From sequence record DQ372055.1: a stretch of DNA of 757 nucleotides, one strand, 5' to 3'. This document shows, piece by piece, positions 1-757 of the stretch; position 1 is the stretch's first letter, and the number at the start of each line of letters is the position of its first letter. The notes beneath the pieces were generated by a model that searched no databases, was not told the origin of the DNA, and was given only the letters and a program-made list of their open reading frames with translations. The DNA is from a phage. A program made the position numbers and the translations under genes.

Positions 1-106
1 TGACGACGACATGGCTCGATTGGCGCGACAAGTTGCTGCGATTCTCACCAATAAAAAACGCCCGGCGGCAACCGAGCGTTCTGAACAAATCCAGATGGAG
101 TTCTGA
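1..106 (+). CDS. cII: cII transcriptional activator, C-terminal fragment (5' end outside window; codon phase starts at nt 2; stop TGA 104-106)
   Basis: Frame starting at nt 2 translates to [34 protein letters not shown], which matches the C-terminus of phage lambda CII as I recall it. Not in the ORF track because it is truncated by the window edge. Identity is recalled, not computed. Confidence 0.88.
52..78 (-). terminator. Rho-independent terminator of the oop-type antisense RNA (minus strand)
   Basis: Read on the minus strand: 5'-CGCUCGG-UUGCCG-CCGGGCG-UUUUUUAU. A 7-bp GC-rich stem (six Watson-Crick pairs plus one G-U) formed by nt 72-78 and 59-65, loop 66-71, then a U6 tract (plus-strand A6 at 53-58). 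On the plus strand the run of A precedes the hairpin, so it terminates only leftward transcription. Position within the cII 3' end matches the lambda oop terminator. Confidence 0.6.
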
Positions 107-129
107 GGTCATTACTGGATCAATCCACA
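52..129 (-). ncRNA. oop: oop-like antisense RNA (about 78 nt), antisense to the cII 3' end and the cII-O spacer
   Basis: Terminator at 52-78 on the minus strand, and a candidate promoter on the minus strand that places the transcription start near nt 129. Length and position relative to the cII stop match lambda oop. The 5' end is inferred, not observed. Confidence 0.5.
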
Positions 130-135
130 GGAGTA

Positions 136-164
136 ATTATGCCAAAACAACTCAGTCCTGACCA
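136..164 (-). promoter_or_regulatory. Candidate po-like sigma70 promoter for oop (minus strand)
   Basis: Minus strand reads TGGTCA (plus 159-164; 4/6 to TTGACA), a 17-nt spacer, then CATAAT (plus 136-141; 5/6 to TATAAT). Predicted start is about 7 nt downstream, near plus nt 129. The -10 overlaps the ATG of the small ORF on the opposite strand. Confidence 0.4.
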
Positions 165-285
165 GGACAAATTACACAAAAACATACTACGTGATCGGTT
201 CTTATCCAGCTTCAAACAGCCTGGTCGATTTCGGGCTGAGTTGGAGAAAGTGAAGCTAATACTGAAGAGGAAAGGTCATGAGTAA
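139..285 (+). CDS. Hypothetical small basic protein, 48 aa: [48 protein letters not shown]
   Basis: ATG at 139-141 is preceded by AGGAG (129-133) with a 5-nt spacer. This is the same initiation context that lambda uses for O, about 32 nt after the cII stop. Open for 48 codons to TAA 283-285; the other two + frames are closed across this stretch (stops at 134-136, 159-161, 251-253, 257-259). Composition is 8 K + 5 R against 3 D + 3 E. The stop overlaps the O start codon. No homologue recognised. Caveat: a 48-codon open frame arises by chance about 10% of the time. Confidence 0.45.
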
Positions 286-757
286 TCTTGCAACAGTTAC
301 ACCGATAAAACCTCATCTGGAGGTTGTGGAGCATCGCGTGGCAGAACTCGACGATGGCTACACCCGGACTGCAAATACACTGCTGGAAGCTGTCATGCTT
401 TCTGGGCTTACTCAACATCAGCTACTGATTGTTATGGCTGTGTGGCGCAAGACATACGGTTATAACAAAAAAATAGATTGGATCGGAAATGAACAGTTCG
501 CTGAACTCACTGGCATGGCGCCAACCAAATGTTCTACCGCCAAAAACGAGCTTATCAGAATGGGGGTTCTCACTCAGGTGGGGCGTCAGGTTGGTATGAA
601 TAAAAATATTTCCGAGTGGAAGACGAAGGTTAACGGATTCGGTAAAACATTTACCAGATCGGTAAAACTAACCTTCACCAAATCGGTAAAAACCAATTTA
701 CCGAATCAGTCAAACACAAAAGACAATATACAAAAGACAATAAATACAAATACCCCC
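278..757 (+). CDS. O: Replication initiation protein O (lambda O family), N-terminal iteron-binding domain; 3' end outside window
   Basis: ATG 278-280 is preceded by GAGG (267-270) with a 7-nt spacer. It is the first ATG after in-frame stops at 251-253 and 257-259, and the frame stays open to the window end (160 codons). Translation [65 protein letters not shown]...NELIRMGVL...GMNKNISEW...TKDNIQKT aligns with lambda O from residue 1 as recalled (MTNTAKI..., DLDDGYARLSNMLLEA, LRKTYGWNKP, NEAKLELVRM, GPNKNISEW, TKDTITKE). Iterons lie inside the gene, as in lambda. Confidence 0.88.
637..706. repeat. Origin iteron array: three dyad-symmetric O-binding sites built on TCGGTAAA / TTTACC half-sites
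   Basis: Forward half-site (A)TCGGTAAA at 639-646, 659-666 and 683-690. Inverted half-site TTTACC at 650-655 and 697-702, and a degenerate TTCACC at 674-679. The outermost 10-mers, ATTCGGTAAA (637-646) and TTTACCGAAT (697-706), are perfect reverse complements. Forward half-sites are spaced 20 and 24 bp apart. Position inside the O N-terminal-domain coding sequence mirrors lambda ori. A possible degenerate fourth site, GGTTAACGG, lies at 628-636. Confidence 0.7.
716..742 (+). repeat. Perfect 13-bp direct repeat ACAAAAGACAATA (716-728 and 730-742) in the A-rich tract right of the iterons
   Basis: Identical 13-mers one nucleotide apart (period 14). They sit in a strongly A-rich, strand-asymmetric tract (707-757) in the same place as the A/T-rich unwinding region next to the lambda iterons, which as I recall has the related motif ACACAAAAGACAC...ACAAAAGAAAAAAG. 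Confidence 0.6.

Follow-up and report, generated by a model that had tools for sequence, protein, structure and literature searches.

The closest described counterpart of the DNA analysed here is a laboratory phage, the sequenced hybrid lambda cI857(18,12)P22, i.e., lambda hy106 of S. Hilliker (immlambda repP22, DQ372055.1), which, according to PMC3349717 (Hayes et al. 2012), combines lambda cII and an almost intact oop with a P22-type pO -35 and P22 orf48-18-12. Its divergence from lambda is stated there to start at 38694, the single-base hy106/lambda differences given ahead of that point being 38673 and 38689; natural lambda is described as having no orf48, and the sequencing primer L22 of that study as ending at lambda 38534. 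In the same paper, a 33-bp pO/oop patch is printed that 23 lambdoid phages have in common (see also its Fig. S1 and S2), this patch being, by its account, “sequence 5” of Clark et al. 2001, and the native P22 c1-oop-orf48-18 region, credited to Pedulla et al. 2003, is likewise considered here as relayed in PMC3349717.

The window, i.e., the whole 757-nt stretch of DNA that was analysed, is made up of two segments, each of which is indistinguishable from a reference phage (Table 1): positions 1-121 are identical to lambda NC_001416 38548-38668 (121/121, 100%, by local alignment, with which the global alignment agrees), and positions 114-757 to P22 NC_002371.2 32324-32967 (644/644, 100%, by megablast on phage records and by direct alignment). 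Because these perfect matches overlap nowhere else, the lambda-to-P22 crossover is placed in the octamer 114-121, 5' of the ATG at 139, the final lambda-specific base being 113 and the earliest P22-specific one 122. Left of 114, sliding alignment with P22 gives ~40-65% identity, and a P22-identical viral contig is 52% identical to the window left of the patch. The first-pass annotation of this DNA, working from a lambda string that proves to be exact (GGATCTATCAACAGGAGTCATTATGACAAATACAGC, which alignment places at lambda 38664-38698), had called the cII end and the spacer lambda-like, which, given the identity over 1-121, was if anything an understatement, and the donor of the downstream part, whose search it had set as a check, turns out to be P22 (100% identical over 114-757).

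To the right of the crossover, the comparison with lambda passes through four substitutions (122, 126, 135 and 142) and one 1-nt gap over 122-149, becomes undetectable from 150 to ~327 (20-nt windows at 0-35%, with one chance window at 65%), and restarts at gene 18 codon ~17, the start of the O/gp18 core, with 40-90% identity over ~328-757; the last lambda base aligned before the divergence is 38693. Sliding identity accordingly falls sharply within 140-155, as had been anticipated, uniform divergence across the window being refuted, and lambda similarity is indeed lost soon after the ATG at 139 (gone from ~150). The mosaic boundary that had been proposed just past this ATG is a genuine edge of similarity, but the junction of the molecule itself is the upstream one at 114-121: the stretch 122-149 resembles lambda because P22 has its own copy of a patch conserved in essentially all lambdoids, to whose 33 nt the lambda/P22 homology in the cII-replication junction region is confined, and at ~146-150, where the breakpoint had seemed to lie, this patch (114-146) has its right edge. 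The window thus holds two boundaries, of which that at 114-121 is recent and absolute and that at ~146-150 is older. The lambda-P22 join is located inside a stretch common to lambda-like phages between cII and the replication genes, and this arrangement, the patch and the absence of orf48 from lambda are already published (PMC3349717), as, very probably, is this very hybrid.

Table 1. Features of the 757-nt window (positions within the window; strand given where one applies).
Feature	Position	Strand	Basis
Lambda-identical segment	1-121	+	121/121 in local alignment
Lambda cII 3' end, final 34 codons and TGA (104-106)	1-106	+	Lambda annotation of cII (38360-38653); Pfam Phage_CII
oop gene, 77-nt OOP antisense RNA, 5' end at 128	52-128	-	Hairpin, fold, placement in PMC3349717
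P22-identical segment	114-757	+	644/644 identity
Crossover interval ACTGGATC	114-121		Sole overlap of lambda-identical 1-121 and P22-identical 114-757
Conserved lambdoid patch ACTGGATCaATCcACAGGAGTaATTATGcCAAA	114-146		11 phages and the window aligned on the ATG; same 33-mer in PMC3349717
pO, promoter of oop	136-164	-	Promoter scan; P22 oop promoter annotation (32346-32374 = window 136-164)
orf48, 48-aa DUF2740 protein	139-285	+	ORF list; P22 annotation; Pfam
Cassette without lambda counterpart, orf48 and ~16 first gene 18 codons	150-327	+	Alignments
P22 gene 18, first 160 codons, lambda-O-type replication initiator, cut by the window end	278-757	+	P22 annotation; Pfam
P22 ori iterons within gene 18, four of ~22 nt each, core ...ACCnnATCGGTAAAA	626-714		Repeat family D1; inverted repeats I1, I2
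Tandem pair ACAAAAGACAATA, start of the A+T-rich part of ori	716-743		Repeat family D3; alignments

When set against the published description of hy106, the window agrees in its cII allele, in an oop that is essentially that of lambda, in the P22-type -35, in orf48-18 standing in for O, in the divergence at 38694 and in the bases at 38673/38689. The cII 3' end and the oop body are the lambda alleles throughout (121/121), O is replaced by P22 orf48-18 (644/644 identical to P22) with lambda being alignable up to 38693, and a start at lambda 38548 together with a length of 757 nt is consistent with a Sanger read from primer L22. P22-type bases are, however, present in the window not only at 38673 (126) and 38689 (142), but also at 38669 (122) and 38682 (135), two differences that the text of PMC3349717 does not mention; either they were left out there, or the window and the hybrid as deposited are not the same. 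The cI857 allele and P22 gene 12 of the hybrid belong to parts of its genome beyond the 757 nt of the window. Neither natural parent accounts for the whole window: native P22 is identical over 114-757 (orf48, the gene 18 start, the iterons and the A+T-rich ori flank), but has its own c1 3' end, oop body and terminator left of the patch (~52% vs window 1-113), and native lambda, which is identical over 1-121 and homologous in the patch and in the O/gp18 core (~328 on), has no small ORF, starts O at the patch ATG and carries iterons that differ from those of the window. The window quite probably represents the laboratory hybrid lambda cI857(18,12)P22/hy106 as read from primer L22 and deposited under GenBank DQ372055.1, and the explanation that we find best for the locus as a whole, and hold to be highly probable, is an imm-lambda rep-P22 hybrid made in the laboratory and joined in 114-121 of a conserved patch acting as the junction.

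That the window should stem from a lambdoid phage or prophage that recombined in nature, with a lambda-identical cII/oop end and P22-identical orf48-18, seems unlikely, even though a lambda-type cII followed by orf48 does exist in nature (UPF_BP1, HK022, PhiR12_2 and E. coli prophages), the cII-lambda left flank being combined with orf48 in 8/120 viral contigs among the matches listed, and even though window 50-141 is matched without a difference by an E. coli prophage, FDAARGOS_1280, so that the junction sequence itself also occurs in nature. UPF_BP1, however, is 98.9% identical and covers just 44-757, the E. coli prophages have three differing sites within 1-49 and ~85-94% identity in orf48/gene 18, and perfect identity to two laboratory reference strains of different host genera is what a laboratory cross predicts. 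None of the 111 full-flank viral contigs among the matches listed had both flanks at least 95% identical to the window, the exact 49-nt junction (window 94-142) was matched in 0 genome contigs and 0 viral contigs, the plasmid collection yielded just natural P22-like elements (at most 97.5% identical, starting at window 45), and no locus in the E. coli genomes covered at least 80% of the window, while in EC556, the best E. coli match, cII is of the lambda type and gene 18 is P22-like (~94%), together with a gp53-like ORF. A chimera arisen in vitro or in silico, i.e., through PCR template switching or mis-assembly of lambda and P22 at the patch, would agree with a join placed exactly in a short shared sequence, with both halves being identical to common laboratory phages and with lambda DNA being a frequent contaminant of assemblies; we nevertheless regard it as barely credible, as there is a viable phage with exactly such a gene order, which was isolated and propagated, formed lysogens and was sequenced (PMC3349717), and the window start fits the primer L22 of that paper.

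The patch in which the laboratory hybrid would have been joined (ACTGGATCaATCcACAGGAGTaATTATGaCAAA, located between a cII-like stop codon and the ATG that comes next, at 114-146 of the window) is like the published 33-bp patch in sequence, position and boundary role, without any substantive difference, and is invariant among 11 phages and the window, when these are anchored on the ATG, except for positions 122, 126, 135 and 142, where the window has the P22 variant (A, C, A and C) beside a lambda left flank. Its minus strand contains the oop +1/5' end and the pO -10, and its plus strand the Shine-Dalgarno sequence and the ATG. As a 33-mer degenerate at the four sites, it is present in at least 120 IMG/VR viral contigs. 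The left flanks are of three unrelated types in the 11 phages and the window (cII-lambda, cII-HK022 and c1-P22), the right flanks are also of three unrelated types (O directly, as in lambda; orf48/DUF2740, as in P22 and HK022; and an HK97-gp53-like ORF), and all 9 left x right combinations occur among the 120 viral contigs of the matches listed (at least 120), the flank types being short of full equilibrium (chi-square p 3e-7 for the 120 matches listed, with relatedness ignored). In these comparisons, the patch is a module boundary on either side of which unrelated flanks assort, and its retention as ATCgACAGGAGTAATTATGACAAAA in an Erwinia phage despite diverged flanks points to the patch being held by functional constraint rather than by recent sharing alone.

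The patch is also seen in non-enteric assemblies, either on lambda-sized contigs (Shewanella canadensis, 48,542 bp at a coverage of 0.96; two Pseudomonas contigs of ~48.4 kb) or on tiny low-coverage ones (Bradyrhizobium, Pseudoxanthomonas, Kitasatospora, Ruminococcus and others), which likely represents lambda DNA contamination. Another border is annotated nearby in AJ237660 (“phage 21”), where positions 665-666, corresponding to ~window 70, are labelled “border lambda immunity” inside the cII/oop overlap; the sequence to the right of them is lambda-identical, and the join of this imm21 hybrid was therefore not made in the patch but ~45 nt farther left, in the region of the oop terminator.

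The cII end of the window matches Phage_CII (Pfam, E 2e-09, profile positions 64-91 of 91), and its final 55 nt are overlapped by the OOP RNA, the ends of which follow from what we take to be the coordinates of lambda oop, 38675-38599. On the minus strand, the terminator scan places the strong hairpin of tO, behind which comes a U run, at 82-55, and pO, the sole promoter-like site detected in the window, has a P22-type -35 (TGGTCA, 164-159) that is separated by 17 nt from an extended -10 (TG-CATAAT, 141-136); in position, both agree with the P22 annotation of an oop promoter and terminator and with the oop of lambda. Such a leftward sigma-70 promoter and intrinsic terminator would give a predicted RNA of ~77 nt over the cII end, of which 75/77 nt are identical to lambda OOP and whose predicted fold is equivalent to that of lambda OOP (-28.4 vs -28.5 kcal/mol, z ~-3.7). 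Since CATAAT is the complement of ATTATG, the orf48 start codon at 139 is inside the pO -10, and the Shine-Dalgarno sequence of orf48 (AGGAG, 129-133) sits between this -10 and the oop +1. An Rfam search at E up to 1 returned zero OOP-family matches at the locus, there apparently being no OOP family in Rfam.

The sole Rfam match at that threshold, MIR774, was spurious, lying over the iteron inverted repeats. A perfect palindrome, GTCCTGGTCAGGAC (window 155-168), overlaps the pO -35 and orf48 codons 6-10 and gives a weak hairpin in the terminator scan; it is broken in HK022-type alleles (GTCCTTACCAGGAC) and is, therefore, probably non-functional.

What the ATG at the patch opens differs between phages: among the 120 viral contigs of the matches listed, it is O directly in 48, a gp53-like ORF in 44 and orf48 in 28, a small ORF thus following the ATG in 72/120. 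The orf48 of the window covers the whole DUF2740 profile (Pfam, E 2e-28, 98.3 bits vs a gathering cut-off of 27), its TAA (283-285) overlaps the gene 18 start by 8 nt, and its homologues, found in 127 phage records from Escherichia, Salmonella, Shigella and Erwinia phages, are each directly upstream of an O-like gene, with the 8-nt overlap (ATGAGTAA) being kept as far as an Erwinia phage. It is from the Erwinia homologue (54% amino-acid identity, same position) that the conservation of orf48 is argued, because a crude synonymous/non-synonymous count for the P22 allele against that of HK022 yielded so few differences (7 and 9) that no firm dN/dS can be drawn from them. In the viral contigs among the matches listed, orf48 precedes four initiator cores (HK022, PhiR12, P22 gp18 and PM43 types) and the P22 gp18 core also stands behind the gp53-like ORF, which makes the small ORF and the replication module separate units; in front of the lambda O core there is either no small ORF or a gp53-like one, as in ES18. 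By its distribution, orf48 is a conserved gene that was carried in and that reassorts independently of initiator type. Of the two origins that had been offered for the small ORF, carried along with the module or created by the junction, the former stands and the latter does not, in view of a conserved family represented in 127 phage records, and the idea that small ORF and replication module came in as a single unit fails on their separability.

The label “tail protein” is attached to orf48/DUF2740 in RefSeq (P22 NC_002371.2, UPF_BP1, Sf101 and Erwinia phage Midgardsormr38, 701-847 of the locus examined), and PHROGs files the family (phrog_1913) under “tail”. A tail role is very unlikely for a 48-residue protein encoded in the early-right operon, with cII on one side and the replication initiator on the other, and the label looks like a propagated mis-annotation.

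Gene 18, with its ATG at 278 and a Shine-Dalgarno sequence of its own (GAGG, 267-270), scores well above the gathering threshold of Phage_rep_O (Pfam, E 2.7e-38, 130.8 bits vs a cut-off of 28.7, domain residues 20-114) and has iterons inside it, in keeping with the O-family gene that had been recognised at this position from the letters alone. The P22 rep_origin annotation (32840-32984) corresponds to window 630-774, and the iterons at 626-714 are unrelated in sequence to the annotated lambda iterons, so the supposition of a replication module with another iteron specificity is supported, the module being that of P22 gene 18 and ori. To the right of the iterons, the stretch 716-743 and the ori flank of lambda share 80-90% identity. 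Taken slightly wider, window 711-743 (ACAAAAGACAATAtACAAAAGA...) forms a third short conserved island, this one within ori (80-90%, P22 vs lambda).

The first 10-17 codons of the initiator genes go with whatever is upstream of them (MSN... with orf48, MGVVKLADYR... with gp53 and MTNTAKILNF... with the patch directly) and lie outside the Phage_rep_O domain, which starts at residue 20; the slot from the patch to this domain may, therefore, be an exchangeable cassette, with the lambda equivalent of window 150-327 measuring 44 nt (O codons 4-18). Going further, window 147 to ~330 could be a three-state cassette (none, DUF2740/orf48 or HK97-gp53-like ORF), each state with its own pO -35 and first 10-17 initiator codons, whose small ORFs are not passengers but, being translationally coupled, modulate either the synthesis of the initiator or the OOP/cII balance, which we put forward as a rather doubtful possibility. 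A second recurrent mosaic boundary is seen within the initiator gene, at codon ~12-20, ahead of the Phage_rep_O domain (window 278 to ~330; 1074-1130 of the ES18 locus; also in loci L008 and L011), at a motif, GTGGAGCRTnnnGTGGCAGA, that encodes ERxVA; ES18 gp59 is identical to lambda O past this boundary and has the gp53-linked leader before it. Between the starts of lambda O (MTNTA) and gp18 (MSNLA), 12/18 of the first nt match, which is suggestive, at the sequence level, of a deletion from the ATG of the patch to that of gene 18 having produced the lambda arrangement.

Another history, built on the one that the first-pass annotation had favoured, is that a junction within the 5' end of an ancestral O, past its ATG, brought in the P22 module in one piece and generated the small ORF. 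Lambda similarity does stop a few codons past the ATG, the variability of the first ~10-17 codons outside Phage_rep_O means that junctions do occur in the 5' ends of O-like genes, and the 12/18-nt match would fit a loss by lambda of an orf48-type cassette. The join of this molecule, however, is at 114-121 and not past the ATG, which is in any case no ancestral O start that was cut at 139, the same ATG opening O, a gp53-like ORF or orf48; moreover, orf48 is a conserved Pfam family across phages of four host genera, it is combined with four initiator types, a gp53-like ORF can likewise stand ahead of the gp18-type core, and a small ORF equivalent to the one behind the ATG at 139 is present in 72/120 viral contigs among the matches listed. 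All of this renders a junction inside an ancestral O highly improbable as compared with a join within the patch.

Under the mechanism of a join within the patch, the lambda parent would have contributed 1-121 and the P22 parent 114-757, with the exchange in the octamer 114-121, i.e., at the left end of the patch, past which lambda runs directly into O, and P22 into orf48 and then, with the 8-nt overlap, gene 18. We infer both the functional upkeep of the patch and the recombination through it: the patch would be preserved by four signals on two strands (oop +1, pO -10, Shine-Dalgarno sequence and ATG) and would act as a crossover site reshuffling the immunity/cII and replication modules of heterologous lambdoids, because the flanks are unrelated between phage types and the patch is the only homology available. 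In this, the mechanism is that of the classical “linker” view of how phages evolve by modules, which is said to go back to Susskind and Botstein. The current understanding is left unchanged by the window, as the patch, a lambda without orf48 and the hybrid have all been published; it does, however, make for a clean textbook case of lambdoid module exchange, in which immunity and replication regions that are otherwise unrelated have no homology but a 33-nt segment under constraint on both of its strands, the place where natural and laboratory hybrids alike are joined.
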